Part shown: positions 2,491-39,982 of the stretch, piece after piece | Layout of the letters: every line of letters starts with the position of its first letter | How positions within the stretch are numbered: the stretch's first letter is position 1 | Source of the DNA: a virus | IMG/VR virus record: IMGVR_UViG_3300032261_000561 | Direction: 5' to 3' (one strand) | Length of the DNA: 64,000 nucleotides | Notes under the pieces: generated by a model | What the model was told of the DNA's origin: nothing | The model's database searches: none | What the model saw: only the letters and a program-made list of their open reading frames with translations | Translations under genes and position numbers: made by a program

Positions 2491-2518
2491 GGACGATTTA
2501 CCTGGGAAGTATATTCCT
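2491..2518 (-). promoter_or_regulatory. ECF-like promoter with operator
   Basis: GGAAT-ATACTTCCCAGGTAAATC-GTC. Confidence 0.7.
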
Positions 2519-2529
2519 AGACGGTCTTC

Positions 2530-2961
2530 TCAATCGCTGGATAGTGCGTTGTACAGCGCCCAACTCTCCACGCGATCGTGGATCGGGGCGATGCTCTGGT
2601 GGTCGCGGCCGAAGATGTCGTGGCTCAGCCGACACCACCGGCTGTCCGACGACTCGGCGTAGTTACCGCCCATCATCGGGCCCGCGTACTCCTTGGTATT
2701 GGAGCCCTTCTCGACGTACTCCAAGGGCACCAGGTGCGGCCCGTAGAGCGCCGGGACCGCCGACTCCACCAGGATGAACTGGGGCAGGTCCTGCCCCCAG
2801 TCGGGGAGCATCAGCGACTCCGGCAGCGGCTGCCAGTTCTTGTCGACATGCCGCTTGGTGCCCACCACGATGATGCGGTCATAAGTGGCGCTGACGCCGC
2901 CGTTGGTGCAGTCAGATCGATCCGCAGCGCGATAAACGCTGAGGATGAGACCTTTAGGCAT
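2530..2961 (-). CDS. Hypothetical phage protein
   Basis: DCTNGGVS, GPMMGGNYA and IHDRVE motifs; GGAGACACC SD. Confidence 0.75.
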   Translation of the reverse strand: MPKGLILSVYRAADRSDCTNGGVSATYDRIIVVGTKRHVDKNWQPLPESLMLPDWGQDLPQFILVESAVPALYGPHLVPLEYVEKGSNTKEYAGPMMGGNYAESSDSRWCRLSHDIFGRDHQSIAPIHDRVESWALYNALSSD

Positions 2962-3169
2962 TGGTGTCTCCTTCCTCGCCCGGCCTGGGGTGGGACCAAA
3001 AGCCCACCCGGTTGCCGTTGATGTCTTTCAGTCGGCCGACACGCTCGTGGCCGTCTTCCTCGATGGACTGCGCGGCCTCGCGCAGGATGCGCGCAATCTC
3101 AGCGGCCGGGGCGTCGGCGAACGCGGCGCCCTCGGTGCTGATGTGCAGATTGAATGCCTTGGGCATCAT
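2954..3169 (-). CDS. Hypothetical phage protein
   Basis: AAF...EIARILR...LKDINGNRVG pattern. Confidence 0.7.
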   Translation of the reverse strand: MMPKAFNLHISTEGAAFADAPAAEIARILREAAQSIEEDGHERVGRLKDINGNRVGFWSHPRPGEEGDTNA

Positions 3170-3324
3170 TTCCCTCCCCACATGCGGGCCAGTTTTTCGG
3201 CCGTCATGGTGCGTGTTTGGTGTTGGATCTCCGGCGCGGCGGCGTGACAGTCCAGACAGCGTCCCTTGGGGAACGCGTCCATCTCATCGATCCGCCGACC
3301 GCAGTCGGTGCACTGTGTGCTCAC
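3166..3324 (-). CDS. Small Zn-finger protein
   Basis: CTDC and CLDC; coupled start/stop. Confidence 0.6.
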   Translation of the reverse strand: MSTQCTDCGRRIDEMDAFPKGRCLDCHAAAPEIQHQTRTMTAEKLARMWGGK

Positions 3325-3677
3325 ACTTCCTCCTTGCTCTGTTTGGCCAGCTGGCGCAGGTAGCGACGCCGCATCCGGACGACCTCCACGTTGGAGCCGA
3401 TGGCATCGGCCACCTCCTGGACCGGGTAGCCCTTGGTCAGCTGGTAGAACTCGTACTTGTCCATTTCGCCGCCGATGAACGCCATGGCGTGCGCCCGCAA
3501 TTTGTCGGACTTGATCGCTGCCAGCCGTGGGTAGGCGTCGTACAGACCGGCCCACTGCATGAGCGCATAGTTCACCGCCCACTCGCGGTCGTAGCCGTGC
3601 TCGGCTGCGGCCCGGTCGAGGATCTCGGTGACCCAGTCCTGCGGGGTCGAGGACAGCTCGATGCTTACCACTGTCAC
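3321..3677 (-). CDS. Hypothetical protein, possible C-terminal HTH
   Basis: PVQEVADAIGSNVEVVR; coupled to upstream stop. Confidence 0.6.
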   Translation of the reverse strand: MTVVSIELSSTPQDWVTEILDRAAAEHGYDREWAVNYALMQWAGLYDAYPRLAAIKSDKLRAHAMAFIGGEMDKYEFYQLTKGYPVQEVADAIGSNVEVVRMRRRYLRQLAKQSKEEV

Positions 3678-4177
3678 CACCCCCGCTCGGGGTCGACGAT
3701 CTCCGGCACGCCCCAGTAGAGCCGGTCGAAATAGTCGACCTGGATCTCGGAGCCGTTCCAGTTGTAGGCGTCCCAGAAGCCCTGCAAGATCGCCAGGACC
3801 CGCTCGCCCTCCACCGTTTTGATCCGGTGCGGCTTGGCGTGCTCGCTGTCGCGATACTGCCCGCCAGCCGAGCACCAGACGTTCCCACAGCTCTGGGCCG
3901 TCCACCCCTCGCCGTTCTCGAACGGCCGCTTGCTGCCGGGCTTGATACCCTCGCACCACTGGTACATGCCGTCCAGCCCCTTGGCCGCGATGTCGATCGC
4001 CTGGCCTCCGGAGTAGGACCGGCTGCGCACCGAGTAGTTCTTCATGCTGCCGGGCAGCTGGCCGCTGGCGATGGCCGCTTTGATATCGGCGCGGATCTGC
4101 TTGGCGATGTCGGTGACGCGGCGGAAACCGCCGTCGCACTTCTCGCCGTAGGCCCGCTCGTACATTGCTCGTGACAT
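3674..4177 (-). CDS. LPD29-like (polyvalent-protein-associated) domain protein
   Basis: YSVRSRSYSGGQAIDI and YNWNGSEIQVDYFD motifs. Confidence 0.65.
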   Translation of the reverse strand: MSRAMYERAYGEKCDGGFRRVTDIAKQIRADIKAAIASGQLPGSMKNYSVRSRSYSGGQAIDIAAKGLDGMYQWCEGIKPGSKRPFENGEGWTAQSCGNVWCSAGGQYRDSEHAKPHRIKTVEGERVLAILQGFWDAYNWNGSEIQVDYFDRLYWGVPEIVDPERGW

Positions 4178-4203
4178 GGTGTGTGTCTCCCTTCCGATCA
4201 CAA

Positions 4204-4231
4204 GAACAGTTTACCTCAGAGGTATATTCCT
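4204..4231 (-). promoter_or_regulatory. ECF-like promoter with operator
   Basis: GGAAT-ATACCTCTGAGGTAAACT-GTT. Confidence 0.75.
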
Positions 4232-4703
4232 ACGCCCGAGGCCCTTCCCAGGACTCGTGTTCCACTTCGCTCAGCCAGGGGCGCCGCTCGTAGTCCTCAA
4301 CGGACACCAGGTAGTAGGCCCGCCCCGATGCGCTCTGGTAGGACACGCCCACCTTGCCCTCGGGCACCGACTCGCACCAGCTGCCCCAGGCAGCCGCCGG
4401 GTGAGCGTCACCAGCCGCTAACCGGCGTTGCTTCTCGTCTTCGCGGGCCTGGCTCGCGGCCGCTCCCTCGCGGCAGCTCTCACCATGGATACCTTTCGCG
4501 CCGCCATGCCGCTTGAAACACTGCGCGCACAGCGCGGGCGCCGGGCAGTAGGGCAGTTCGTGGCGCACGCCGTACGAGAGGTGACTCACCTTGAACCGGC
4601 AGGGTCGCTTGCGCACCCCCTGCGCGCCTCCGGCGCGGCCGCAGCCGCCGTCACAGGCAATGGCCATCCGGCCGTTGCCCTGTCGTTGATAGCAGTAACC
4701 CAT
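4230..4703 (-). CDS. Cys-rich hypothetical protein
   Basis: Multiple Cys clusters; AAGGAGACAC SD. Confidence 0.7.
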   Translation of the reverse strand: MGYCYQRQGNGRMAIACDGGCGRAGGAQGVRKRPCRFKVSHLSYGVRHELPYCPAPALCAQCFKRHGGAKGIHGESCREGAAASQAREDEKQRRLAAGDAHPAAAWGSWCESVPEGKVGVSYQSASGRAYYLVSVEDYERRPWLSEVEHESWEGPRA

Positions 4704-4715
4704 CGTCGTGTCTCC

Positions 4716-4928
4716 TTACTTGATGAGGTCGAACGGGTGCGGCTCTTTACCACGCCCGCTGTGGCTTCCGCGTCCCATCGCTCGCGCGTACGCGATCTGC
4801 GATTCCCACGCGTGCATCTTGTAGCCGCCGGAGGTCTTGCTGAACCAGCTGGCGTCGGCATTGGAATGCGTTTCCAGATAGGCCCTGCGTGCGGCCGGGC
4901 TGATCTTGCCGCTGGTGAATGCTTCCAT
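4716..4928 (-). CDS. Hypothetical protein
   Basis: ORF MEAFTSGK in co-oriented run. Confidence 0.6.
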   Translation of the reverse strand: MEAFTSGKISPAARRAYLETHSNADASWFSKTSGGYKMHAWESQIAYARAMGRGSHSGRGKEPHPFDLIK

Positions 4929-4929
4929 G

Positions 4930-5286
4930 TCACTTCTCGATGTCTTGCAGTCTGGCGAACCAGGAGACGTTCTGCGGGTTGCGCAGCACGGGTTCTTGGG
5001 TGTCGACGTCGTACAGCTCCGGCACACCTTTGACAATGGCGTTTTGCCAGTTCCTCTCGGCGTAGCCGATGGTGCCGTCCCACCAGACGGTGCGGACCTC
5101 GCCCGAGATCATGCCGAGCTGGTAGGCCACCCCGCGCCCGATGCTCTTGCCGTCCACCTCGACTCCCCACAAGGTGCCAACCAGGGCCCCACGCTTGGGG
5201 CTGCGAACGTAGTTGATGGCGTGCGGACGCCACTGCAGCTCAGTGCGAAGTGGCGCGTCCTCGTAGTTGGTGCGAACGGGGATCAT
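4930..5286 (-). CDS. Hypothetical protein
   Basis: AGGAGACACAC-ATG start. Confidence 0.7.
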   Translation of the reverse strand: MIPVRTNYEDAPLRTELQWRPHAINYVRSPKRGALVGTLWGVEVDGKSIGRGVAYQLGMISGEVRTVWWDGTIGYAERNWQNAIVKGVPELYDVDTQEPVLRNPQNVSWFARLQDIEK

Positions 5287-5461
5287 GTGTGTCTCCTAGA
5301 TCTTCTTGATGTAGCTACCGAATTTGGACCGGCCGAGCCGGAGTGAAATCCCGAACCAGGGGACCGAGACGACCAGCACCCAGGCGTCGGGGAAGTTGCG
5401 CACGGCGTGGCCGAACCCACCGGCGTAAGAGCGGAGCGCGTAGCCCCACAGAATCTGGACC

Positions 5462-5668
5462 TTAGCTAGCCCCGATCTGGGCGAGGCGTGCTTTGATGAC
5501 TGCCGCTCGATCGTCAGCAGCGGCGGCACGATCGAGGAGCTGCTCCGACAGTTCACGACGTCCGCGTTGTTCTTGGAGCTGAGCGGCGTTGAGCGCGGCG
5601 TCGTATCGCTGCTCTACTCGCTTCAGCTCCCACACGAGTTGAAATCGTTCTCGGTTGGCTTTAACCAC
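5462..5668 (-). CDS. Hypothetical coiled-coil protein
   Basis: ORF track, helical composition. Confidence 0.6.
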   Translation of the reverse strand: MVKANRERFQLVWELKRVEQRYDAALNAAQLQEQRGRRELSEQLLDRAAAADDRAAVIKARLAQIGAS

Positions 5669-5673
5669 CCCTT

Positions 5674-5829
5674 TCAGGCGGCGGCGGCGCGGGGTTGCCC
5701 GGCCGCGAATTCTTCCTCCCAGATCGCTTCGAGCTGGGCTGCGGCGTCCTTGTGGCCACGCTTGGCCAGGACGAAGATCGCGTCGTTGATCGCGTCGAGG
5801 AACTCGACGGAGATTGGTTGCTTGCTCAT
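5674..5829 (-). CDS. Hypothetical 51-aa protein
   Basis: Not in track; MSKQPISVEF after promoter cassette and GGAAGGAGG SD. Confidence 0.65.
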   Translation of the reverse strand: MSKQPISVEFLDAINDAIFVLAKRGHKDAAAQLEAIWEEEFAAGQPRAAAA

Positions 5830-5849
5830 CACCCTCCTTCCAGTATTAA

Positions 5850-5877
5850 GGACAATTTACCTGACAGGTATATTCCT
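5850..5877 (-). promoter_or_regulatory. ECF-like promoter with operator
   Basis: GGAAT-ATACCTGTCAGGTAAATT-GTC. Confidence 0.75.
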
Positions 5878-5882
5878 ATTTG

Positions 5883-5971
5883 TCAGTCGCGGAAGTACAT
5901 GTGTTGCGGGCGTTCTGAGCAGCCGAAGCCTCTAGGCCCCCGGGCCATGATGAGGCCCGGTCCGCGACTGA
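5883..5971. ncRNA. Candidate structured RNA (three-way junction)
   Basis: 11-bp perfect outer stem enclosing a 7-bp hairpin and a UUCG-capped stem (minus strand); intergenic. Confidence 0.4.
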
Positions 5972-6012
5972 AGTCTGGCACGTTGGTTGGGGAGTCGCGC
6001 CCCTCCCGTGGG

Positions 6013-6420
6013 TTAGTCCATCCGCGACCCGGGGTAAGCCTGGATCCCGGCCTCTTCCAAGATCCTGGCGAACGCATCGGCGTAAGCCATCTTGCGTTCC
6101 AGGGACTGGTTGAAGGCGCCGACCCAGTACTCCCAGCCGCCGTAGTAGCCCTTGTGCCCCTTGCCCTGCTTGCGCAGCCAGTTGGCGAACGAGCTGTTAC
6201 CCGGCCGGATGTTGACCCAGGCGAAACCGCAGACACCATCCATCACCGGCTCGTAAACCTTGATGACCGGAGAACTGTCGTCGAGCGGATGCAACCGCTG
6301 GACGACCTGCATGGGGACGGGCCTCACGGCCTCCCCGGCTGCCATACCGGCGGCATGCGCCTTGTTGAAGAGCGCCTGCGCCTCGGCGTGACTGAACTTC
6401 GGAGCAACTTTCTTTTCCAT
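6013..6420 (-). CDS. Hypothetical phage protein
   Basis: GVCGFAWV and QSLERKMAYADAFA motifs. Confidence 0.8.
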   Translation of the reverse strand: MEKKVAPKFSHAEAQALFNKAHAAGMAAGEAVRPVPMQVVQRLHPLDDSSPVIKVYEPVMDGVCGFAWVNIRPGNSSFANWLRKQGKGHKGYYGGWEYWVGAFNQSLERKMAYADAFARILEEAGIQAYPGSRMD

Positions 6421-6444
6421 GGTGTATCTCCCTTCCACTGCTTA

Positions 6445-6472
6445 GGACGCATTTACCTGTCAGGTTATTCCT
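6445..6472 (-). promoter_or_regulatory. ECF-like promoter with operator
   Basis: GGAAT-AACCTGACAGGTAAATGC-GTC. Confidence 0.75.
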
Positions 6473-6674
6473 GGCTGGCCCGGTATTCGGCCGATGCCTT
6501 GGCGTCGTTGAGCGTGGGGAAGCTGCCGACGACGACATAGGGGTCACCGTCCTGCCTGGCGCGCAAGAGGTTCCACGAGGAGTTGCGCGCCCGCCCGGTG
6601 CGGCGAATCTGCCACTCGTCGTCACGCGAGACGTAGGTGGTGTAGATGGTGTTGCGCTTGCGCCACTGGATCAT
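6465..6674 (-). CDS. Hypothetical protein
   Basis: AAGGAGACACAC-ATG; FPTLNDAK motif. Confidence 0.7.
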   Translation of the reverse strand: MIQWRKRNTIYTTYVSRDDEWQIRRTGRARNSSWNLLRARQDGDPYVVVGSFPTLNDAKASAEYRASQE

Positions 6675-6693
6675 GTGTGTCTCCTTACAAGTG

Positions 6694-6717
6694 AAACCGG
6701 GCGGGGTCACCGCCCGG
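6694..6717 (-). terminator. Probable intrinsic terminator
   Basis: CCGGGCGG-TGACC-CCGCCCGG-TTT just after the 6726 stop. Confidence 0.5.
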
Positions 6718-6725
6718 CTGTTGGG

Positions 6726-7313
6726 TTACTTGGCCACGCGGACCAGTCGGAACCGGATCTGATCGGCGTCGAAGTCGAGCGCCTCCCAGTTCTTCTCGCC
6801 GGGGAATTCGGCAGCCGCCAACTCCTTGATCCCGTCGAAAATCTGCGCGGCCCGGCTGGCTGCCCAGTCGCGGTTTTCCTTCGACAGCAGGGACATGGCC
6901 TCATCGACCATGTAGTGAGCCAGCTGCTTCTTGGCCTCCTCGAAGCTGGGCTCCTTGCTGACGATGCTGGCGTGAGCCATCGCCCGGTCCTCGTCGCGCC
7001 ACGCGCTCAGGCTGTCCCGGCTGGCGAAGTAGCTCACCTGCTCGACCTTGACCGCCCCGCTGTCGAGGACTTTCAGCAGCGCGTGAGCGACGGCGCCGAT
7101 GTGGTCACCCTCGTCGTGCCCGCTGCCCTTGCCACCCCGCTCGCGGTACTCGGCGTTGGCCTTTTGCATGAACTCCCAGCGAGGACTGCCGTCCTCGTGA
7201 ACCAGCTTCTCGCGCTCGACCTTGGCGAGACCCTGAGCCATCGCCTGGACGATGGGGTCATTGCTGAGCAGCTCCTCGACCTCGTCGTAGTGAGCCGCCT
7301 TGATCATTACCAT
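6726..7313 (-). CDS. Hypothetical protein
   Basis: Promoter cassette and SD upstream. Confidence 0.8.
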   Translation of the reverse strand: MVMIKAAHYDEVEELLSNDPIVQAMAQGLAKVEREKLVHEDGSPRWEFMQKANAEYRERGGKGSGHDEGDHIGAVAHALLKVLDSGAVKVEQVSYFASRDSLSAWRDEDRAMAHASIVSKEPSFEEAKKQLAHYMVDEAMSLLSKENRDWAASRAAQIFDGIKELAAAEFPGEKNWEALDFDADQIRFRLVRVAK

Positions 7314-7334
7314 GTGTCTCCCTTCCGATTATCA

Positions 7335-7362
7335 GAACACGTTAACCTGACAGGTTATTCCT
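7335..7362 (-). promoter_or_regulatory. ECF-like promoter with operator
   Basis: GGAAT-AACCTGTCAGGTTAACGT-GTT. Confidence 0.75.
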
Positions 7363-7860
7363 TCAGACTCGGGCCTCGTCGCGAGCCGGGTCGTTGTCGC
7401 CCTGGACCCACTCGATGTCCTCGATGCCCAGCTCCTCCCACAGCGCGATGATCTTGAGCCGGTCCTCGATGGCGCCGATGATCTCGTAGCCCTCGTCGAC
7501 CAGCTCCTGGTACAGCTCCCGTTTGGTTTCCTCACCAGGGCGCGGGTCGTGGTTGGGGGACATCTTGAACACCTCCCACGGCCAGGGCATCGCCTGGCGC
7601 ACCCAGGCTTCAGACGCTGCCCGGTAGCGCTCCTCACGGCCGGTCAAGACGATCAGCGCGTAGCCTGCTTCGGCGTACGGGCGGATCCAGTCCAGCGCCT
7701 GCTGGTTGGCCGGGTAGCTGTCGCTCATTGCGATGAACGCATCGTGGTCGCGCTCGTGCTTGGGCTTGTCGACAATGTGGTGCAGCCCGCTCGACACGTC
7801 GGCCAACGAGCCGTCGATGTCGATGATGACTGCCTTGCGGCGGCGGATTTCCTTTTCCAT
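7363..7860 (-). CDS. HAD-family phosphatase (polynucleotide 3'-phosphatase-like)
   Basis: IIDIDGSLAD, LTGR, K and IEDR motifs. Confidence 0.85.
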   Translation of the reverse strand: MEKEIRRRKAVIIDIDGSLADVSSGLHHIVDKPKHERDHDAFIAMSDSYPANQQALDWIRPYAEAGYALIVLTGREERYRAASEAWVRQAMPWPWEVFKMSPNHDPRPGEETKRELYQELVDEGYEIIGAIEDRLKIIALWEELGIEDIEWVQGDNDPARDEARV

Positions 7861-7885
7861 CTCTCACCTCCCTCTCCCATAGTTA

Positions 7886-7913
7886 GAACAGTTAACCTCT
7901 CAGGTTAATTCCT
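7886..7913 (-). promoter_or_regulatory. ECF-like promoter with operator
   Basis: GGAAT-TAACCTGAGAGGTTAACT-GTT. Confidence 0.75.
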
Positions 7914-7931
7914 TGACCTGCGATGCTGCAG

Positions 7932-8609
7932 CTATGCAGTAGCTGCTGCAGCACGCTCCCGGCGCCGCAGGGCCTCCGCATAGCGACCGTGATAGACGTT
8001 GTGCCCGGCGCCCATCGGGTAGACCTTGTACGCCTCTTTGAACGCCGTCGTCATCAGCTTGCGGAAGTTGGGTCCATGAATCTCGTGGGTGGTGCCCATG
8101 GCGATGTGCACCAGCTCGTGCACCAGCGTCTCGCGCGCGTCGGCCAGGGTCTGGCCGGGGTAGGTCGCGATAGTGATCTGGTTGCGCGAGGGGTAGGCCA
8201 CACCCATCTGGCTGCGGGGGTGGTAGCTGTGCTTCCGGATCAGCAGCGTAGGTGGGCGCCGGAACAATCGGCCGGTCTTGCCGCCGAACGCGCGCAGCTT
8301 GATCAGCTTCCTCATCTCGTCGCGCAGGTCGACGCCGTCCACGGTGTAACGCTCCGTCTCGGCATCCTTGGCCCGCTGCCGGGCGCGTGCCGCCGTGGCC
8401 CGCTTGGACTTGGCCTTGGCCGCTGAGCTAACAGCTGCCGCCGCCCGCTTGCGTTCCAGAGCCGGGGCCACGCGAAGCACCAGTCGGCCGGTCTTGGCCG
8501 AGCACGGCAGGCAGTAGCGTTCGATTGAATCCTTGAGCGGACGCGTCGAGGCCAGGATCCCGGGGCAGCCGTTAGGGCAGTTCCACCGGACTCTCTTGGG
8601 TGCGGTCAC
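7932..8609 (-). CDS. SprT-like zinc metalloprotease with N-terminal Cys motifs
   Basis: TLVHELVH...HGPNF; CPNGC and CLPC; GTG start overlapping upstream stop. Confidence 0.75.
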   Translation of the reverse strand: MTAPKRVRWNCPNGCPGILASTRPLKDSIERYCLPCSAKTGRLVLRVAPALERKRAAAAVSSAAKAKSKRATAARARQRAKDAETERYTVDGVDLRDEMRKLIKLRAFGGKTGRLFRRPPTLLIRKHSYHPRSQMGVAYPSRNQITIATYPGQTLADARETLVHELVHIAMGTTHEIHGPNFRKLMTTAFKEAYKVYPMGAGHNVYHGRYAEALRRRERAAAATA

Positions 8610-8836
8610 TCGTAGCTCACCCCCTGGATGATGACGTCCAGCCAGTGGCTGGGCATCCGTCGACCGCGCCGCAACTTCACCCGCTGCTTGCAGTAGTCGC
8701 ACACCGCGCTGGCGTCTTCGTAGTAGTCCTTGTCAGCCTGCCGATGGATGATCAGCGTGCTGCCGGAGTACATGACGCCCGAGCACCTGATCTGCCGCAC
8801 GTAGCCTCCGATGTGGTCTGGAAGTCTTTGCTTCAT
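8606..8836 (-). CDS. Small Zn-binding hypothetical protein
   Basis: CSG, CDYC and H pattern; GGAGGG SD. Confidence 0.6.
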   Translation of the reverse strand: MKQRLPDHIGGYVRQIRCSGVMYSGSTLIIHRQADKDYYEDASAVCDYCKQRVKLRRGRRMPSHWLDVIIQGVSYE

Positions 8837-9075
8837 GCCACCCTCCTTCTCTGCTTGGCGTGAACGGTCTTGATGTCTTCGACGCGGATCCAGCGCCGCC
8901 GGGCCTCCCGACTGATCGGTCCCTCGACCGTCAGCTGCAGGACGTCGCCCAGGTACTCGGCGCACAGGAACACCCACTTGCCGCCGGGCAGACCCGGCTT
9001 GCGGTGGACGCTGACGAGCATTCCGCGTTTGAGGTTGTGGCCATTGACCTTGACCTCGTACAGAAATTTCTGCAT
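8833..9075 (-). CDS. Hypothetical beta-barrel-like protein
   Basis: AAGGAGACACACTCC-ATG. Confidence 0.7.
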   Translation of the reverse strand: MQKFLYEVKVNGHNLKRGMLVSVHRKPGLPGGKWVFLCAEYLGDVLQLTVEGPISREARRRWIRVEDIKTVHAKQRRRVA

Positions 9076-9329
9076 GGAGTGTGTCTCCTTGGTTCGGGAC
9101 CGGCTGTTCCGGTCCTCGACACCCATTCTACTTGCTGGCCTCTACGAAACCCCTGTTTAGAGCTAGTTTAAGGGTTTGCTGAGTTAATTCCCCAGCAACA
9201 CGCCCGAGCGAAACTGGTACTTGACATCGATAGCGCACCGGGATTCGATGCGCCGCCCCGTCTAGCAAATCGCCCTGACCTGGGCTTACTCGACGATCCT
9301 TTCAGCTGCCAGTTTACCTGACAGGTAAC

Positions 9330-10085
9330 TTATCCGGCCAGCGCGTAATCGCTCTGTGCCATCTCGGGCACCGGGTCTTCCAACCAACCCTGCAGAATGG
9401 GCAGCGTCACCGACGGCTTGTTCTTCAGGTACGTGCCGTCCACCGAGTCCGCGCCGATCATGCGGGCGAAGCGGTAGCGGGCCAGCGAGTTGACTCGCCC
9501 GATGTGCACCCATTTGCCGCGCCGCTTGGCCTCCTGGACCACGCTGATGCAGCCCGGCTTACCCCACGGCGTACCGCACAACTTCAACGGCCGCACCCGG
9601 CCCTCTGGCGGGGAGCCGACCTTGTAGTCGTCGGAACCACCGACGAAGATGACGTCGATCTCATCCCATGGCACGTCGGCCGGGTCCAGCCCGTCCTGCG
9701 CCACCAGGGCCACCGGGTAGCCCAGCTCGCGGATCTTGTCATACCACTTAGCCGACTCGACCAGCGTGGCGGCTGCGTCGCCCATCGGGCCCATCTTGCC
9801 GCCACCGTAGTCCACCCAGTGCACGACGTCGGGCGCGGTGGCGAACACCGCCCGATGCGCCTTGTCGGCGTTTTTCACCAGGAAGTTCCACCAGCCCTGC
9901 TCATCCCACGGCTCACCGCTCATCGCCCGCTTGGGACTGAACTTGCCGTTGTCGGCGCACCAAAGCGCACCCTCGGGGTGCTTGTTGCCCTGATCGGGCG
10001 TGTCGATCAAACCCAGCAGACCGCCCTGCTCCATGACTTCACGGGCGCCCGCTACCGGGTTGCCGAAATAGATTGGGTTCTTCAT
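9330..10085 (-). CDS. TGT/DpdA-like (queuine ribosyltransferase fold) protein
   Basis: ADNGKF, APDVV, VAQDG, FVGGS, VHIGRVNS, GADSVDGT motifs. Confidence 0.65.
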   Translation of the reverse strand: MKNPIYFGNPVAGAREVMEQGGLLGLIDTPDQGNKHPEGALWCADNGKFSPKRAMSGEPWDEQGWWNFLVKNADKAHRAVFATAPDVVHWVDYGGGKMGPMGDAAATLVESAKWYDKIRELGYPVALVAQDGLDPADVPWDEIDVIFVGGSDDYKVGSPPEGRVRPLKLCGTPWGKPGCISVVQEAKRRGKWVHIGRVNSLARYRFARMIGADSVDGTYLKNKPSVTLPILQGWLEDPVPEMAQSDYALAG

Positions 10086-10110
10086 TTCGCGTCCCTCCTT
10101 CCATTAGGAG

Positions 10111-10150
10111 GAACGCGTTTACCTGCTGGGTATATTCCCTGTCAGGTTAA
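10111..10150 (-). promoter_or_regulatory. ECF-like promoter with tandem operators
   Basis: TTAACCTGACAG-GGAAT-ATACCCAGCAGGTAAACGC-GTT. Confidence 0.7.
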
Positions 10151-10443
10151 TTTCTGTGGTGGTGACCTGGCTTTTTGTACGTCCGCAGATCGTGGCGGCG
10201 CTCTTGCTCGGTGATGCCGCCCCACACCCCGAACGCCTCGTCGTGGGTGAACGCCCACTGCGCACACTCGGTCTGCACCGGGCAGCGGTTGCAGATGCTG
10301 CGGGCCTCCTGGGAGGCCGCCCGGTTGCGCTCGCTGGGGAAGAAGACGTCGGGCTCATAATCGCGGCAGATCCCCCGCAGCTTCCAGGCGTCCGAGGAAT
10401 CCTCTCTCACGAACACCGGGAGGCTGTAGGGGCTGCGGGTCAT
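10147..10443 (-). CDS. whiB: WhiB-family transcription factor
   Basis: Four Cys (CRDY, CNRC, EC), DVFFP, GVWGG. Confidence 0.95.
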   Translation of the reverse strand: MTRSPYSLPVFVREDSSDAWKLRGICRDYEPDVFFPSERNRAASQEARSICNRCPVQTECAQWAFTHDEAFGVWGGITEQERRHDLRTYKKPGHHHRN

Positions 10444-10733
10444 GTGACCTTCGACGTGGTAAGGAATTTGGACGTGCTGTACGGGGTGGACGGCCGCTGC
10501 GGGATGTCGTCGGCCTGGTGCGGATGGATGCCCAGCATCCGCAGGATGTCACCTATCTCGGCGGGCGTGGCGCCGTGACGATCGCCCAGCAGGCAGATGG
10601 TGCGCCGGGCGGCCTTCTGCTGCTCGGGGGTCGGCTCGTCGAAGAACTCGACCTCATCAGTCAGCGCTCTGGTATCCCTGGCCACCTGCGTCCTCCCTTG
10701 TGCGTGGGGATCTGAGTATCTGATGCGCGTCAC
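10440..10733 (-). CDS. Hypothetical protein
   Basis: Translationally coupled between terminase and whiB. Confidence 0.7.
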   Translation of the reverse strand: MTRIRYSDPHAQGRTQVARDTRALTDEVEFFDEPTPEQQKAARRTICLLGDRHGATPAEIGDILRMLGIHPHQADDIPQRPSTPYSTSKFLTTSKVT

Positions 10734-12913
10734 GGTCTGCCCGTTCTGGGCATAGATCCGCGCACGTTGATCGACTGGGTGCGTGTCGGTGTGTAGCGCA
10801 CCCGCGACGAACGGTTCTGGCTGAGCATCTGCCGGGCCGGGTTGTCGGTGGCCCCCAACTTGTCGTCCAGCTGGGAGGCCAGCCGGTTGATGGCGCCGGT
10901 GCGGATCAGCTCGCGGCCGCTTTTCAGACCCGCCGCCTCCGTCGACCCGAACGACGGGGTGGTCAGGCTCCTGCCGTTGTAGCGGTCCAGGGAGTCACGC
11001 AGCAGCTCGGTGGCCACCACACTGACCGCGTCGAAGAGGTCTTTGGTGGTCACCGGCCCGATGTCCTGCTTGACCACCTTGCCCTGGCGCTCGGCCAAAA
11101 AGCGCATCTCCATTTCCAGCAGGGAGCCGCCATCCTCGTAGAAGACGTCGCGGTAAGAATGCATCCAGCCCAGGTTGAGCGCGGACTTGAACTTCTCCAT
11201 CCGGCGCTGGTTCTCCTTCTCGGTGAACAGCACCTCGCCCACCATGATGCGCGGGGAGAACCGTTGACGCAGCTGGGCGATGCCCAGCGCGGAGTCATAC
11301 TGGTCGAAGCTGATCTTGGTGGTGGAGGGGTAGCGTTCCAGGAACCTCGCGATCTCCTCCATCACCCTGATGTAGTCAATCTGGCGCCGCCCGTCCTCGT
11401 CGGGCTCGGATTCGCCGGGCTTCCAGACGTGCAGCATGTCGAACATGACGTGCGGCCAGTGCATGCCCGGGAACGGCTCCCGGCGTTCCAGGCAGGCCTT
11501 ACAAGGATGGAAAGTCTCGGCGTAGTCGGGCATCTGCCCGCAGCGGTCGCACGGCGCGATCTCGGTGTGCCCGATGGCCAACGCGAAATTCGCGCCGGTG
11601 CGCGACGGGTCGCAGTGGATTCGGTAGCGGTAGTACAGCTTACCCTGGCTCTGGGCTTCCAACGGCGGACGCCAGCCGGGCGGGCGGAACATGGCCTCCA
11701 CGCTCAGCGGATCCAGGTAGGCGCCTTCGACGTCGGCGAACTGGCCGCGCCGCTCCACGCGGAACTTCTGCGGGTTTTTGATCTCCATGCGCTTCATGCG
11801 CAAGTTCTCCGGCAGTTCGCCTTCCGGGGGGTAGGTGACCGGGCGCCGGATCGTCTGGCCGATCAGCTCGGGCCCGCGCTGCCAGTCCTCGTAGAGGCCC
11901 CAGCTGGGCAACTGCAGGATCAGCATCTCGGGATCGGAGGTGAGCCGCTCGATCTCCTCCTCGGCATCCAGTCGCAGACTGCGCTCGGTCTGCTGCACCA
12001 TCTCGCCCTGATAGTTGGGCATCCAGACGCTGCCCTCCTGGTAGAGCCGGTAGAAGATCCCAATTTTCGTGAAGGGGCTACTGGGCACGAACGTCAAGCC
12101 GTCCTTGGCAAACTGGTCCAGCGATGGCTGCCACGCGGTGTAGATCTCCTCGCCGGATTTCACCGACCCGGTGCCCAGCACCATGTGCGCCATCTCGTCG
12201 TAGAAGTTGGCAAAGCCGACGCCACCACGCCCGGCCGACGAGCTGGATGACAGCGCCACGCCGGTCAGCGAGGCAATCTCGTGCTCGACGGTGACACCGG
12301 CCGCTTTCAGCTCCGCGATATAGCGGATGTCGGCCGGGGTGCGGATGGAGAAATAGTGATCTTTCGACGTCGCGATGTGCGGCTGCAGGTATTTGCAGCG
12401 CTCCACGGTGCGCCGCACGTCGGCGAACTGGAACCGCTGCGCCTGGTTCTGGTTGGTGGCCACCACCGAGAGCACGCCGTTCTGGCCACGGTCGATGTCG
12501 TAATAGGCCTGCCAGTCGTCCAGGCTGTAGAAGTAGGCCAGCTGCTCGCAGCCCAGCCCGCCGCCGATCAGGCCCTTAGACCCGCGTCGGCCCAGCACCA
12601 GCTGGATGTGCGGGAACCGCCGGTAACCGTTGCGCTTGAGATAGTCGACGCGCTCCCAGATGTCGGGCTGCACTCCGAAGGTGTCCCGGCGGCGCAGGAA
12701 GCCCTGGCGCCAGCTCTCGATGACCTCCAAGTCGTACTCGGTCATCAGGTCGGTTTCTAAGAAGACCAGCCGGTACAGCGTCTGCTGGCGCGGGTAGAGG
12801 CGCCGCCCGCAGAAACTGCGGTGGGTCATGAAGTCCACCGAGGACTCCCACGGCGCAGGCCGAGTCAGCGACTGAGTAAACAAGGAGGCGGGACTAAAGG
12901 GTCCCTGGATCAA
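10730..12913 (-). CDS. terL: Terminase large subunit
   Basis: LYPRQ adenine motif, GRRGSK Walker A, FYDE Walker B, PSSP coupling motif, HCDPS / SFDQY / KDLFDA nuclease motifs. Confidence 0.9.
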   Translation of the reverse strand: MIQGPFSPASLFTQSLTRPAPWESSVDFMTHRSFCGRRLYPRQQTLYRLVFLETDLMTEYDLEVIESWRQGFLRRRDTFGVQPDIWERVDYLKRNGYRRFPHIQLVLGRRGSKGLIGGGLGCEQLAYFYSLDDWQAYYDIDRGQNGVLSVVATNQNQAQRFQFADVRRTVERCKYLQPHIATSKDHYFSIRTPADIRYIAELKAAGVTVEHEIASLTGVALSSSSSAGRGGVGFANFYDEMAHMVLGTGSVKSGEEIYTAWQPSLDQFAKDGLTFVPSSPFTKIGIFYRLYQEGSVWMPNYQGEMVQQTERSLRLDAEEEIERLTSDPEMLILQLPSWGLYEDWQRGPELIGQTIRRPVTYPPEGELPENLRMKRMEIKNPQKFRVERRGQFADVEGAYLDPLSVEAMFRPPGWRPPLEAQSQGKLYYRYRIHCDPSRTGANFALAIGHTEIAPCDRCGQMPDYAETFHPCKACLERREPFPGMHWPHVMFDMLHVWKPGESEPDEDGRRQIDYIRVMEEIARFLERYPSTTKISFDQYDSALGIAQLRQRFSPRIMVGEVLFTEKENQRRMEKFKSALNLGWMHSYRDVFYEDGGSLLEMEMRFLAERQGKVVKQDIGPVTTKDLFDAVSVVATELLRDSLDRYNGRSLTTPSFGSTEAAGLKSGRELIRTGAINRLASQLDDKLGATDNPARQMLSQNRSSRVRYTPTRTQSINVRGSMPRTGRP

Positions 12914-12976
12914 TCGATTTTGACGGTTGGGATGAAATGGCGTTTACTTCACCTCCCCAGTAAACTGATCGAGCTT

Positions 12977-13036
12977 GGCGAGGCGAGGCTCGGCCAGGCG
13001 GGGCGCGGCGGGGCTTGGCGCGGCGGGGCTTGGCGA
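12977..13036. repeat. Pentamer array (GGCnn)x12
   Basis: GGCGA GGCGA GGCTC GGCCA GGCGG GGCGC GGCGG GGCTT GGCGC GGCGG GGCTT GGCGA. Confidence 0.85.
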
Positions 13037-13045
13037 GGGATTGAC

Positions 13046-13070
13046 CCTCGGGAGCTAAACACTCCCGAGG
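13046..13070 (-). terminator. Hairpin after lysis cassette
   Basis: CCTCGGGAG-7 nt-CTCCCGAGG immediately after the 13073 stop; no U tail. Confidence 0.45.
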
Positions 13071-13072
13071 CC

Positions 13073-15279: not shown

Positions 15280-16005
15280 TCATGCGACTGGCGTGGGCAG
15301 GGTCCCAGCTGGTTGCAGGTTGATGACGACGGCGCCGTAGCGGGCGTACACCTTGGGCGAGCCTGCCGGTTTGTTCTGCAGCAGGATCGTGCCGGGGCCC
15401 TGGTGGTCCCCCACCCAGAAGTTGCTATTAGCGTCCAGGAAGCGCTGGGTGGCGTGTCCGGTTCCGCTGATCTGGCCGTCGGAGCCGATGAAAATCACCG
15501 ACAGCGAGCCCATGAAAGCCGGGATGGGCACCGAGATGAAGCGGCCCTGTCCCCGGCGGCCGGTGACGCCTTTGCGCAGCGCCTGATCGGGAATCCCGGC
15601 GACACCCTTGTAGGTCAGCGAGATCCCGCTGTACTGACTGAAGGTGGCCGACGCGGGCGAGAGCGGATCGTTGGCGATCTGGCTGTAGCCCAGGTTGGCC
15701 ACCACCGATCCGCCTGCGGCGGCCGCGCCGACACCCGCCCAGACTTCGATCAGACCGGGACGCGGAGCACCCCAACCCTTGCCGCGCTGGGCATACCAGG
15801 GGATCAGCGGGGTCAGCGCATTACCGCCCACGGTGACGGTGCGGGTGATGCTCTTGTCGATCGGGCAGGTGTGGTTGTACTGGAAGCCCACCAGGATGAG
15901 ATTGGCCTGGGCGCCAGAAGTGTGGGTCCACCCTGAATTCAGCGTGTTGGTGTTCGGCCCGGCCACGATCTGGCCGCCGGAAACAGCATCGAAAGTCACG
16001 GGCAT
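15280..16005 (-). CDS. Probable virion/minor tail protein
   Basis: MPVTFDAVS start, beta-rich, in late module. Confidence 0.55.
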   Translation of the reverse strand: MPVTFDAVSGGQIVAGPNTNTLNSGWTHTSGAQANLILVGFQYNHTCPIDKSITRTVTVGGNALTPLIPWYAQRGKGWGAPRPGLIEVWAGVGAAAAGGSVVANLGYSQIANDPLSPASATFSQYSGISLTYKGVAGIPDQALRKGVTGRRGQGRFISVPIPAFMGSLSVIFIGSDGQISGTGHATQRFLDANSNFWVGDHQGPGTILLQNKPAGSPKVYARYGAVVINLQPAGTLPTPVA

Positions 16006-16056
16006 AGCGGTTAAGCCTCCTCACCCTTTCGGGTTTGAGACCGCCACACCTACAGG

Positions 16057-17361
16057 TCACACACCAGGGCGGCCCGTGGCCTGAATATGTTGGGCGAGGG
16101 CGGCAGCCACCTGCTCCACCTGCTCGGGACTCAGGATCTCCAACAGCTCACCCTGCTCCACCCAGAAGAACGCGTTGTTGTCGGGGCCCCTCTCGGCGCG
16201 TTCGTATTTCGTCGCCCAATCGCCCGCGTTGGTGGCGAAGTGACCCACCGTCGCGACACCGGCCACCAAGTCCTCGAAGTTGATCTGACCCCGCTCGAAC
16301 TGTTCCATCAGCTCCCTGACGGTGGGCTCGGCAGAAAACTGCTGCGTGTCTTCTGCGGCCATGCGGAAGGCCCTTCTTCGTGCCTCGTGGACATTGGGAT
16401 AGACGGTGGATCCGCCCGCCGATAGCGGATGGTTGTGCCAGCGCTGGCCGGTGGTGTGAGTGACCACCGGATCGTTTCCCCTGACATCGAATCTTACCGA
16501 ACTGCTCAGCTGGGGCAGGGCCCAGTCGAACACCTCGGAATTCTTGGACGTATGCCCTCTCTGAGCCCCTTCGGGACTGGCCTTATTGAGATGGGAAGCG
16601 TAGCTGGCGACATACCGGCCGCCGTACTTTGGCTCCTCCCCCGGTTGGGGACCACCTCGCGCCTGCTGTTCGCGGTATTCCTCCTCAGGGCCTCGGTGGC
16701 GTTTCTCCACCCGCCGCCGCGCTTCTTCGGGAGATAGATCAGCGAACGCCCCATCGATCTGGCCGTAGCCATATTTGTGCAAATCATCGATGCGGCGTTG
16801 CACCGACTCGGGGGAACTCATGGTGATATCCCAGATCATGTTGCGCCGGTCCCGGTAGGCCAGCGCCGCCAGCTGGTCGGCCATCTCGGAGGACTCCTCG
16901 TGGATGATCCCGGCCCGCTCCATCGGGGAGAGCCTCGACAGGCCGTCCTCGCTGGGGACCATCCCCCGCCGGGCCATCTCCTCCTTGATGTCATCGGAGT
17001 TGACCGACATGTAGTTTTGCCCATTCAGCAGGGCCTGCGGGGTTTGGTTGAGCAGGTGGCCTTTACCCGATCCACCCAGCCCGCCCATAAACATGGCCTG
17101 ACCGTTCTGACCGACACCCTGCGAGAGCTTGGCATAGAGATCCTTGACCAGCTGGGCTTGCTGCCTACGACGCTCTGGGGTCCAGGAATAACCACCACCG
17201 GGCTGCGCGGTGCCATAGATCGCGCGACTGTCCCTCTGACGATCGTTATAGCCGCTGAGGACCTTCTCGACGTCGGCTATGTGCCGGGCATATCCTTCGT
17301 CGTTATCGAAGAAGGCAGCTAGTCGGTAGGCGAAAGCCTCACGCTGGCCAAGAATTCTCAC
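16057..17361 (-). CDS. Zeta-toxin (PezT-like) kinase with extra N- and C-terminal domains
   Basis: FMGGLGGSGK P-loop, VNSDDIK, HEESS, WDIT, GGRYV; GTG start overlapping upstream TGA. Confidence 0.85.
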   Translation of the reverse strand: MRILGQREAFAYRLAAFFDNDEGYARHIADVEKVLSGYNDRQRDSRAIYGTAQPGGGYSWTPERRRQQAQLVKDLYAKLSQGVGQNGQAMFMGGLGGSGKGHLLNQTPQALLNGQNYMSVNSDDIKEEMARRGMVPSEDGLSRLSPMERAGIIHEESSEMADQLAALAYRDRRNMIWDITMSSPESVQRRIDDLHKYGYGQIDGAFADLSPEEARRRVEKRHRGPEEEYREQQARGGPQPGEEPKYGGRYVASYASHLNKASPEGAQRGHTSKNSEVFDWALPQLSSSVRFDVRGNDPVVTHTTGQRWHNHPLSAGGSTVYPNVHEARRRAFRMAAEDTQQFSAEPTVRELMEQFERGQINFEDLVAGVATVGHFATNAGDWATKYERAERGPDNNAFFWVEQGELLEILSPEQVEQVAAALAQHIQATGRPGV

Positions 17362-17561
17362 CTCAGCTCCCACAGCGTCTCATTAGCATCGGTCACCGAC
17401 TGCGGACTCTTGGCGTCCAGCGCCTGGATCTCGCCCCTCTCCACCTTTTCCTGTAATCGCTTCCTAAGCCGCCCGTGCAGATCCTCCTCTTCAGGGGTGA
17501 ACACGATGGGCGGCCCGGCCGCGTAGAGCGCGAACGTCTCGGCCTGCCGGTAGATCCTCAT
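17358..17561 (-). CDS. 67-aa protein sharing an N-terminal leader with the zeta protein
   Basis: MRIYRQAETFALYA; AGGAG SD; coupled to zeta gene. Confidence 0.7.
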   Translation of the reverse strand: MRIYRQAETFALYAAGPPIVFTPEEEDLHGRLRKRLQEKVERGEIQALDAKSPQSVTDANETLWELR

Positions 17562-17570
17562 TATTTACTC

Positions 17571-18338
17571 CTACAGCTGGGTCCGGACGAGGAACACGGC
17601 CCCCGACAGCACCCCTTGATCCTCCACTGCGACCGTCTCCCCCTGTGTGTCATGCAGCCACGCCGAGCAGAACACGTGATAGGTGGACACATACACGGTG
17701 GGATCGGGCCCAGTCTGCCCGTTGTTAGCCGGGACCGGCATGACGTTGATGACCTGCGCATCGTTCCAGAAGGTGCGCCCGACACCGCGCCCGATGATGA
17801 CCTGCTCGGAGTAAAGGGTGGTGGCCCCGTTGGAGATGCCGACTTCGATGACCGGACGCCCCATGTTGGAAGCTTCGGCCAGGATGGAACAGAACACCCA
17901 CGGCTCGAAGGTCAGCGACTGGATGCCGATATCCCAGTCGCAGACTTTGACCGGCGTGGAGCCGGTGGACACCGCGTACCCCGTGGTCGGACCGAACGGC
18001 CCGAGCACATACCCGGCGCCCACCGGAGGTATCTGGGACATCGGAATCTTGCCGGTGGCGTCCAGGGAAGCCACACCCCCGGGCTGGCCGACCTTGCTTA
18101 GCGGCAGATTCAGCGCGTCCTGGCTCTGATAGTAGGCGCGGGACGCGAAAGTGGCGGCCTGGGTGTCGACATAGGCTCTACCGGCCTTGAGTGCGGCCGC
18201 CGTAGTGACGTCGCTGGCCGCCGAGATCTGGCTGGGGGTGGCGCTGTTGACCAAATTGAGGACGGCCAATTTGGTCACGAGATCCTGTGAATTGGCCGGT
18301 ACGCGGCCTACATAGTTATAACCAGTGACTTTGACCAC
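17571..18338 (-). CDS. Minor tail/virion protein
   Basis: GGVASLDATGKIP motif; paralog of next two genes. Confidence 0.7.
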   Translation of the reverse strand: MVKVTGYNYVGRVPANSQDLVTKLAVLNLVNSATPSQISAASDVTTAAALKAGRAYVDTQAATFASRAYYQSQDALNLPLSKVGQPGGVASLDATGKIPMSQIPPVGAGYVLGPFGPTTGYAVSTGSTPVKVCDWDIGIQSLTFEPWVFCSILAEASNMGRPVIEVGISNGATTLYSEQVIIGRGVGRTFWNDAQVINVMPVPANNGQTGPDPTVYVSTYHVFCSAWLHDTQGETVAVEDQGVLSGAVFLVRTQL

Positions 18339-18341
18339 CTC

Positions 18342-19139
18342 CTACATCGCTGGAAGGACGAGAATCCAGTACAGCAGCCCGGCAGGACCAAACTGATACC
18401 CCGAACCTGACCAGCAGCTGCCACACAGATCCAGCTCTAGCGGGCCGACGATCGGCGGCACAGTGAACGGGGTCTGGCTGGGCCCCGCGTACGGCAGGCA
18501 CTGGTAAAAGTTCATGTAATACGTGTCGGTACAGATGCCCGCGCCGTAGACCTGCTCGGAAACCCCTTTCGGGGGCAGCACCGAGAGCATCCCGAAGGTG
18601 CTGGTGCCCTCCAACCGTGAGGTCGGCACGTTGCCGGAGCCGGAGTCCCCGCCCTGCACGATGGCGAACGGGACCGCACGCCAGGGATAGCCGGGATCGG
18701 GGACTTCGATCGAGGCGATCATCAGCTCGCGCAGATTGTTGGTGAGCACCGTCTGAACCGAGCTGATCAGGATCTGGCCCGACGTCGTGACGTTGTAATC
18801 TTTCGCGGTCCACTCGGTGGAAATGCCGGTGGGAAGCTCCGAACTGAGGATGTTCCCGCTGGAATCCAGCGCCGCCACGCCATTGGGCACACCGAGCCAG
18901 CTGGTCGGCACGTAGTTCCTGTCGGCGTTGTCCACCGAAGTCTTCTGGGCCAGCTTGGCGTTGGACAAATTGACGTAGGCCGGGGTGACCAGCGCGTTAC
19001 TACTGATGGCCTGGTTGATCTTGTTGCGAACGAACGTGCCGGTGGGGATGGTGTTGGCGATCTCGGTGTCGGCGAAGGCCTTGGGGACTTCCACCGAATC
19101 CGAATCTGGGGTTCTGCCCGCATACCACTTACCGGCCAC
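18342..19139 (-). CDS. Minor tail/virion protein
   Basis: NGVAALDSSG; VPDPGYPWR. Confidence 0.7.
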   Translation of the reverse strand: MAGKWYAGRTPDSDSVEVPKAFADTEIANTIPTGTFVRNKINQAISSNALVTPAYVNLSNAKLAQKTSVDNADRNYVPTSWLGVPNGVAALDSSGNILSSELPTGISTEWTAKDYNVTTSGQILISSVQTVLTNNLRELMIASIEVPDPGYPWRAVPFAIVQGGDSGSGNVPTSRLEGTSTFGMLSVLPPKGVSEQVYGAGICTDTYYMNFYQCLPYAGPSQTPFTVPPIVGPLELDLCGSCWSGSGYQFGPAGLLYWILVLPAM

Positions 19140-19155
19140 GACACCTCCTCACCCT

Positions 19156-23873: not shown

Positions 23874-23874
23874 C

Positions 23875-30860: not shown

Positions 30861-30912
30861 GTGTGTGTGTCTCCTCATAGATGATCCAAACCAGAATGTC
30901 CGGATACACCTC

Positions 30913-30943
30913 CATTATAGCAAGATTAGAGATAAGTTAGAGG
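30913..30943 (-). promoter_or_regulatory. SigA-like -10 with 11-bp direct repeats
   Basis: TATAAT (minus) next to AAGATTAGAGA TAAGTTAGAGG (plus). Confidence 0.6.
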
Positions 30944-33571: not shown

Positions 33572-33580
33572 GATGTTTCC

Positions 33581-35256: not shown

Positions 35257-35264
35257 CCCGCCAG

Positions 35265-39977: not shown

Positions 39978-39982
39978 GACCT

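Follow-up and report, generated by a model that had tools for sequence, protein, structure and literature searches.

The repeated module and the genes it precedes

The 64,000-nucleotide stretch of DNA analyzed here (IMG/VR virus record IMGVR_UViG_3300032261_000561; hereafter the window) carries virion, lysis, and glycosyltransferase genes and thus comes from a phage; all of its credible genes lie on the minus strand, as do all window features described below. Our subject is an intergenic element, the long module, in which GGAAT is followed 18 or 19 nt later by GTY. A preliminary description had interpreted eight such elements as promoters of the extracytoplasmic function (ECF) sigma type that drive early gene cassettes. 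All eight were located on the coding strand, with GGAAT starting at 2517, 4230, 5876, 6471, 7361, 7912, 10138, and 53817. The bare pattern GGAAT-N18/19-GTY has 13 matches in the window versus 5.6 expected, whereas the fuller pattern GGAAT-N8-13-GGTWAAY-N0-3-GTYC has 8 matches versus 0.00 expected in 100 shuffles, all on the coding strand.

Seven of the copies form a tandem series after the large terminase gene (10730–12913), whose product has ~50% identity to those of the big actinobacterial myophages Phrappuccino, Myrna, the Bxz1-like phages, Pupper, and Finch. A gene for a WhiB-like transcription factor (10147–10443; Whib E 3.5e-24) follows the terminase gene, and its 3′ end adjoins the start of the first long module (10083–10138), which reads GGAAT(10138)-N19-GTT(10114–10112)-N9-GGAAGGAGGGA-ATG(10085) and precedes a 251-aa open reading frame (ORF) at 9330–10085. 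The second (7858–7912; GGAAT-N18-GTT-N9-GGAGAGGGAGG-ATG(7860)) lies before an ORF resembling HAD/PNKP phosphatases (7363–7860), and the third (7311–7361; GGAAT-N18-GTT-N9-GGAAGGGAGA-ATG(7313)) before ORF 6726–7313. The fourth (6418–6471; GGAAT-N18-GTC-N9-GGAAGGGAGA-ATG(6420)) precedes ORF 6013–6420, the fifth (5827–5876; GGAAT-N18-GTC-N9-GGAAGGAGGG-GTG/ATG(5832/5829)) a small ORF at 5674–5832, the sixth (4175–4230; GGAAT-N18-GTT-N9-GGAAGGGAGACACACACC-ATG(4177)) ORF 3674–4177, and the seventh (2463–2517; GGAAT-N18-GTC-N9-GGAAGGAAGG-ATG(2465)) a 75-aa ORF at 2238–2465. The eighth (53748–53817; GGAAT-N18-GTT) stands apart: it has no GGAAGG block at N9 and has a leader of ~45 nt to AAGGAGACACAC-ATG(53750), the start of a 47-aa ORF (53607–53750). 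We also found a ninth, degenerate copy at 565–639, in which GGAAT is followed after 6 nt by the palindrome TTAACCCGAGAGGTTAA, GTYC is missing, and a long leader runs to AAGGAGACACACACC-GTG(565).

All eight copies lie between genes, as had been described, and three overlap or abut the upstream stop codon (TAG-GAAT at 4230; GGAATAA at 6471, with the stop TAA inside it; TGAA-GGAAT at 7361). The spacing between GGAAT and GTY is 18 nt in seven copies and 19 nt in the copy at 10138, in agreement with the earlier count. Inside the spacer lies a 13-bp palindrome, TACCTGnCAGGTA, whose variant in the copy at 4230, ACCTCTGAGGT, is symmetric. The reported one-base compensation also holds: the copies at 6471 and 7361 are one base shorter before the palindrome and one base longer after it. 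An SD (Shine–Dalgarno) sequence had been placed within about 10 nt after seven of the copies. The GGAAGG-type blocks are indeed present, but the distance is not approximate: GGAAGG begins exactly 9 nt after GTY. The window copies thus share a rigid 45-base cassette in the pattern GGAATA-N17/18-GTY-N9-GGAAGGRRG(SD)-N2-11-start, with the N9-SD part present in all but the copy at 53817. We take the GGAAGG block to be nearly the full complement of the 3′ tail of mycobacterial 16S rRNA.

Relatives and host of the phage

Megablast of the window against deposited phage records gave no nucleotide match, and terminase scans of viral and genome contigs returned no relatives. Two relatives were recovered by scanning public collections for the motif itself. 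The first (IMG/VR contig IMGVR_UViG_3300036784_000146, here G001; 143,610 bp, 96% complete) is syntenic with the window at 67–80% nucleotide identity, and the second (soil metagenome contig Ga0306921_10001176, here L042) is 78–90% identical over window positions 1–10.4 kb and keeps the degenerate copy, at its position 9735. Just downstream of its module block, G001 carries a PPE-family gene (32748–33980; Pfam PPE E 2e-54). All homologs of this gene are from Mycobacterium or Mycolicibacter, the closest being in slow-growing Mycobacterium species and Mycolicibacter. Because the homologs are confined to these genera, the host of the window phage very probably belongs to the Mycobacteriaceae. The phage itself is large and uncultured and is probably a lytic myophage.

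Rigid geometry and conservation of the module

Parsing the 8 window copies together with 6 long copies from G001 (at syntenic or other sites) and 7 orthologous copies from L042 gave 21 copies with a common architecture: aGGAATA, 0–1 nt, TACCTGnCAGGTAAA, 2–3 nt, GTYCY, 8 more nt, GGAAGGRRG, 2–11 nt, and the start codon. The GGAAT-to-GTY spacing is 18 nt in 17 copies and 19 nt in four, and four copies have one base fewer before the palindrome that is regained after it. In 20 of the 21, GGAAGG follows GTY at a distance of exactly 9 nt, and the nine bases themselves vary freely, with A favored at −3 and T at −1 relative to GGAAGG. The distance from the SD to the start codon is loose. Information content is highest at GGAA(T)(A), at ACC..GGT.AA, and at the G, T, and C of YGTYCY, and is approximately zero upstream of GGAAT. 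Between the window and orthologous sites in G001, the module is 88% identical, compared with 50% in the 60 nt upstream and 64% in the downstream coding sequence; this difference from the flanks indicates that the module is under selection.

Match to SigH-type promoters

The two outer elements match the consensus of the SigH/SigR group of ECF sigma factors, as the preliminary description had noted, and the match extends to a purine at hexamer position 6 and to a 17-nt spacer between hexamer and trimer. In the hexamer, GGAA is invariant, T occupies position 5 in 16 of 17 distinct copies, and A occupies position 6 in 15 of 17. In the trimer, G and T are invariant and the third base is T in 10 of 18 distinct copies and C in the other 8. 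The hexamer-to-trimer distance is 17 nt in 17 copies and 18 nt in four. For Mycobacterium tuberculosis SigH, the consensus is GGAAYR-N17(18)-GTT; position 6 of the hexamer is preferably a purine, and variation in GTT is reported to be tolerated in vivo (PMC4803200). The −10 element of SigH is G-11 T-10 T-9, and the optimal spacer is 17 bp (PMC6411747), a length that the modules share. In Corynebacterium glutamicum, GGAAT is read by SigH only, and SigE requires GGAAC (PMC10012870). SigR of Streptomyces coelicolor and SigH of C. glutamicum use GGAAT-N18-19-GTT, from which the modules share the GGAAT, the spacing, and a −10 that begins with GT.

With the G of GTY numbered −11, +1 is the base immediately preceding GGAAGG; one base of play moves it to the first G of that block. 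A start at this G gives a pyrimidine at −1 and a purine at +1 (Y(−1)/G(+1)) and lies within one base of the prediction for M. tuberculosis SigH. The rigid N9 spacing can therefore be explained as the distance between a −10 element and a transcription start, which would lie 8–9 nt after the trimer, as at SigH/SigR promoters.

The modules also differ from known SigH/SigR promoters. The third base of the −10 trimer is C in nearly half of them, an invariant C follows, and the spacer holds a conserved palindrome; moreover, they lie in a phage, in a tandem series, each at a fixed distance from a strong SD, and their sigma dependence is a prediction.

Recurrence in a second phage lineage

Other relatives were scanned for GGAAYR-N17/18-GTT followed by an SD. 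The scan gave 12 same-strand matches in ScottMcG (a phage of the Bxz1 species, Cluster C1) versus 0 in the control and 0 in Myrna. Inspection of ScottMcG (EU826469.2) raised this to 14 modules and one GCT variant, of the form cgGGAATGAatcccCATAnnGCnnc-GTT-aTActgaGTGTAAG...AGGAG-ATG, all intergenic and on the same coding strand, with none on the other strand, at 3035, 11584, 12257, 12668, 14303, 14965, 16992, 18726, 21169, 50698, 52025, 57304, 88894, 90072, and 99520; eight are clustered at 11–21 kb. Their pattern, GGAATG-N17-GTT, is the optimum M. tuberculosis SigH consensus, and the information content has its maxima exactly at GGAATG and at GTT, N17 apart. Because the ScottMcG spacer is unrelated to the window palindrome, the two lineages share just the SigH-type −35, −10, and spacing. 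Neither GGAAY..GTYC nor GGAAYR..GTT is enriched in Phrappuccino, Pupper, Myrna, or Finch. The literature searched contains no prior report of these motifs for Bxz1 or Cluster C phages, a result that is not proof of absence.

A separable palindrome and a candidate repressor

The palindrome moves by one base within the spacer relative to GGAAT and GTY, and it also occurs without GGAAT and GTYC. On this evidence it is not just a spacer sequence; it is an independent, separable, operator-like element. When it stands alone it can form a short module, in which the palindrome ends in TAAACT and is followed after 6–7 nt by GGAAGG or by a leaderless ATG. Such sites include G001 24410, 27701, and 101515, L042 1067, and window 35278. 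The G001 site at 27701 is the ortholog of the long module at 7361, which suggests that long and short forms interconvert by a 5–6-nt indel. The last base of the hexamer in the right arm of the palindrome is T in 9 of 9 short sites versus 9 of 21 long sites (Fisher p 0.004; 0.03 with orthologs collapsed). As judged from these sequences, the short form looks like a promoter for the primary sigma factor SigA that uses TAAACT as its −10, and the long form would depend on GTY. The preliminary description had named TAAAyT in the palindrome, acting as a SigA −10, as the alternative that would overturn its reading; this geometry is present in the short form, but the long form does not have it.

A short-form remnant lies at 9300–9340 of the window, GGATAAG-TTACCTGTCAGGTAAACT, with no gene behind it. 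Its ortholog in L042 (1065) reads palindrome-TAAACT-N6-GGAAGGAAGGAG-ATG and stands before a gene that the window lacks. The L042 gene is ~575 bp long (1065–1670 with its short-form module), and the window keeps the palindrome-TAAACT remnant in a 203-nt gap (9127–9329). The presence of the gene in one phage and of a bare remnant in the other suggests that a cassette was gained or lost at a module.

A further copy of the palindrome lies over the promoter of a gene for a 77-aa XRE-family helix-turn-helix (HTH) protein (35023–35256; HTH_3 E 5e-8). This copy (35257–35281) reads TTAACCTGAATGGTAA, its right arm is the TAAACT −10, and the leaderless ATG(35256) follows 6 nt later, which makes it a candidate autoregulated operator. 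The orthologous protein in G001 also matches HTH_3, and its gene has the palindrome over TAAACT in the same way; the same palindrome is found in all long and short modules. A palindrome at the promoter of the XRE gene itself is the classic layout of an autoregulated repressor, and for this reason the 77-aa protein is the best candidate for the factor that binds the palindrome. Two other copies lie elsewhere in the window. At 43454–43483, TTAACCTACTGGGTAA lies where the −35 would be in a SigA-like promoter of the extended −10 type (TGCTACAAT), whose ATG is leaderless, and at 46354–46368 an isolated perfect palindrome, TTACCCACCGGGTAA, lies in a 300-nt gap.

Search for a phage-encoded sigma factor

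The preliminary description had left two sources for the sigma factor, a host stress sigma or an ECF sigma encoded by the phage outside the window. A Pfam scan of 100 window ORFs found no sigma domain. With the Sigma70_r2, r4, r4_2, and TIGR02937 profiles, G001 and ScottMcG gave no Sigma70_r2 match and no TIGR02937 match above cut-off. A search of the same two genomes for a single-subunit polymerase (PF00940) also gave no match, but the control was likewise without a match, which makes this result uninformative. The phage-encoded source is thus not borne out in these relatives, neither of which has an ORF with a sigma-2 domain.

The sole sigma-like ORF, in G001 at 129034–129513 and outside the window, has weak PhyR_sigma-like and r4_2 matches and belongs to phrog_2931. 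Its AlphaFold model (AF2; predicted local distance difference test score 88) has a sigma-4-type HTH after two helices and a hairpin, with no sigma-2, and its best local fold matches are region 4 of SigR and SigE. The homolog in Finch (gp84) is annotated as "RNA polymerase sigma factor." This sigma-4-only family has >130 metagenomic homologs, is found in all Bxz1, Myrna, Pupper, Skog, and Finch-type phages, and has a near-invariant recognition helix. We set this ORF aside as the reader of the modules, since members of the family also occur in three phages without the motif, Pupper, Myrna, and Finch. Given the lack of a sigma-2 ORF in the relatives and the occurrence of the sigma-4 family in motif-less phages, a host SigH-type sigma factor seems the simpler source.

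A model for the module and its alternatives

We consider it reasonably probable, though far from certain, that the modules constitute a regulon in which host SigH-type ECF promoters carry a phage operator within them. In this model, each long module would be a promoter for host RNA polymerase carrying a SigH/SigR-type ECF sigma factor, with GGAATA as the −35 and YGTY as the −10, its G at about −11/−12. Transcription would start at the first G of GGAAGG or one base before it, so that the mRNA would open with a very strong SD. The palindrome TACCTGnCAGGTA would fill the spacer as a separate operator, most likely bound by the XRE protein acting as the phage's own repressor, which would block access of the polymerase and control the entire set. 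Repression on occupancy is predicted because the palindrome would lie at about −29 to −17, where the SigH holoenzyme contacts the DNA backbone (PMC6411747). The short form, which lacks GTYC, would use the TAAACT arm of the palindrome as a SigA −10, and a single regulator could in this way act on promoters of two sigma classes.

Several observations weigh against SigH as the factor that reads the modules. SigH normally sits in a complex with an anti-sigma factor, so its use by a phage would be surprising unless infection frees it. The C after GTY is invariant and is not part of the SigH consensus, and conservation of the spacer palindrome equals that of the −35 and −10, so one factor might read the whole 28 bp. 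In 9 of the 15 ScottMcG copies, GTT shares bases with TATACT or TATAGT, and ScottMcG taken by itself fits SigA equally well; in the window lineage there is no such overlap. Finally, GTC replaces GTT in 8 of 18 distinct long modules, and in vitro a model SigH promoter lost its activity upon any change in GTT (PMC6411747). The GTC variants therefore argue against strict SigH recognition.

Some of these points would fit an alternative that we consider unlikely, in which a polymerase reprogrammed by a phage protein recognizes the modules as phage-specific promoters of the middle or late class. Such a protein might be a divergent or split sigma factor, for example a sigma-4-only protein with a sigma-2-like partner, or a reader of the whole 28 bp. 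Conservation of the entire GGAAT..palindrome..GTYC block, and not of two ECF elements alone, is in keeping with this idea, as are the GTC variants and the invariant C, which deviate from SigH, the sigma-4-like protein of G001 with its resemblance to region 4 of SigR and SigE, and the WhiB gene that abuts the first module. Nonetheless, no ORF with a sigma-2 domain was found in G001 or ScottMcG, and the sigma-4-like family also occurs in phages without the motif. The block also appears to be composite, because the palindrome occurs alone and shifts inside the spacer, and under this alternative the exact host SigH optimum in two lineages would be a coincidence.

We give little credence to the possibility that all modules are SigA promoters with TAAAYN in the right arm of the palindrome as the −10, GGAAT and GTYC being accessory and the palindrome binding an activator or repressor. 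The short sites speak for it, in that all nine end in T and place TAAACT 6–7 nt before GGAAGG or a leaderless ATG, and the short site at G001 27701 is orthologous to a long module. In the long modules, however, 12 of 21 copies have G or C as the last base of the hexamer, no −35 is conserved 16–18 nt upstream of TAAAYN, and GGAATA is just 11 nt away, too near for a SigA −35. GGAAGG is also fixed relative to GTY and not relative to TAAAYN, from which it lies 14 or 15 nt. We rejected a SigA reading of the long form on these grounds and because a consensus scan of window positions 1–14 kb detected no promoter of the SigA (sigma-70) type.

A role for the modules in RNA or translation within read-through transcripts, as a start-associated element of the Cluster K ESAS and SAS kind, a processing site, or a hairpin that masks the SD, seems equally improbable to us. 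The genes all run in one direction with no terminators between the cassettes, so the motif would be transcribed; an inverted repeat is followed by a conserved SD block; and GTYCY is partly complementary to GGAAGG. In the module at 10138 and its G001 ortholog, a strong hairpin sequesters the SD (z −4.8 and −5.9): in read-through RNA the SD is paired to GCGTTCCTCC (window 10083–10120). For the remaining six modules tested, folding is no more stable than in shuffled sequences (z −0.6 to +1.2), the stem that the inner palindrome can form is limited to 4–6 bp around a 3-nt loop, and changes in the half-sites are mostly uncompensated. Exact N18 and N9 spacings with variable sequence suit protein–DNA geometry more than base pairing. 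Moreover, the hairpin at 10138 would mask the SD in RNA reading through from the terminase and WhiB genes but not in RNA started at the module, which fits a transcription start at GGAAGG. In both phages (window 10083–10120; G001 23622–23660) the hairpin has 12 bp and is formed by GCGTTCC(T/-)CC and the SD GGAAGGAGGGACGC.

Three further readings were rejected outright: a SigF/SigB-type promoter (GTTT..GGGTA), prompted by GGTA, since GGAAT is only 9–10 nt upstream; an outer inverted repeat GGAAT/GTTCC as a second dimer site, since the arms are off-center by 2 nt and GTCCT copies match at 2 of 5 positions; and a terminator, since there are no T-runs and folds do not exceed shuffles except in one orthologous pair.

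Comparison with known phage elements

Repeated elements at gene boundaries are known from other phages of actinobacteria. The start-associated sequence (SAS) of Cluster K mycobacteriophages is a 13-bp GGGATAGGAGCCC located 3–8 bp before the start codon, and the extended SAS (ESAS) consists of 17-bp imperfect inverted repeats with a variable spacer of 4–13 bp (PMC3203893, Pope et al. 2011). Like the modules, these are repeated, oriented, intergenic elements before start codons, with an inverted repeat and then an SD block, and are kept across relatives even before unrelated genes. The sequences are unrelated, however, and the module repeat has 13 bp with a 1-nt center; the modules are flanked by asymmetric GGAAT and GTYC at rigid, promoter-like distances, whereas SAS and ESAS have no assigned promoter role. 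The modules thus resemble SAS/ESAS in layout alone and do not belong to that class.

The run of small genes after the terminase gene, with one promoter-like element per cassette upstream of the SD, has a counterpart in the Gordonia phage Pupper. There, at 15900–26000, each post-terminase cassette of small genes has a near-consensus TTGACA-N17-cctgTATAGT, then a GC hairpin of the gcgagaggggctcgc type, and then an SD, and the GGAAT/GTY pattern is not enriched. Since Pupper has promoters at the equivalent post-terminase positions, promoters are to be expected at the module positions in the window.

Cluster A stoperators, the sites of the L5 gp71 repressor, are asymmetric 13-mers that block elongation in temperate phage. 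They share with the window palindrome a distribution of many dispersed repressor-type sites at gene boundaries, with one at the regulator's own promoter. The window site differs in being a true palindrome, in promoter spacers or over −10s, in what is probably a lytic myophage.

Implications

To our knowledge, almost nothing is known about gene timing in the large Bxz1-like mycobacterial myophages. As a more tentative extension of the model, it is possible that two distant lineages of mycobacterial myophages, that of the window and the Bxz1-type Cluster C1, drive a dozen or so accessory cassettes from host SigH rather than from SigA or a phage sigma, with an XRE repressor in the spacer of the window lineage. 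If so, expression of these cassettes would be coupled to, or would exploit, stress caused by infection, SigH being a redox and heat stress factor, and the phages would read the stress state of the host. Such a promoter regulon, dependent on an ECF sigma, would be the first described for a lytic phage, and the modules would be compact, stress-inducible, repressor-gated parts for mycobacterial genetics that combine a promoter with a ribosome-binding site. The module suggests a concrete wiring diagram, in which a host stress sigma factor and a phage repressor would act on the long form and the same repressor on the SigA-type short form. If the reader is not SigH, the modules would still define a new promoter class for another factor. 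ScottMcG grows on M. smegmatis mc2 155, so the idea is directly testable in a cultivable phage.

Other elements in the window

A second class of promoter-like sequences was observed at 30890–30930, 39980–40000, 43454–43483, and ~56140–56200, with one or two CTCTAA/CCTAA boxes and an extended −10 TGCTAYAAT. The copy at ~56.1 kb reads TGTGATAAT, and one copy is present in G001 at 4109. Among these, CCTCTAA..TGCTAYAAT sites of the SigA type lie at 30922, 39992, and 43462, and an ATG follows 6 nt later at 39992 and 43462, implying leaderless transcripts. The early timing that the preliminary description gave to the module cassettes is not supported.

In the gap upstream of the terminase gene (12914–13072), direct repeats of CAAGCCCCGCCGCGC-like units follow a hairpin (GGGCCTCGGGAG..CTCCCGAGGGTC), an arrangement that may mark a region of packaging or termination. 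The start tag AAGGAGACACAC(ACC) recurs immediately in front of start codons, both with and without a module, at 4175–4195, 7311–7325, 53750–53765, 565–585, and ~55740–55766.

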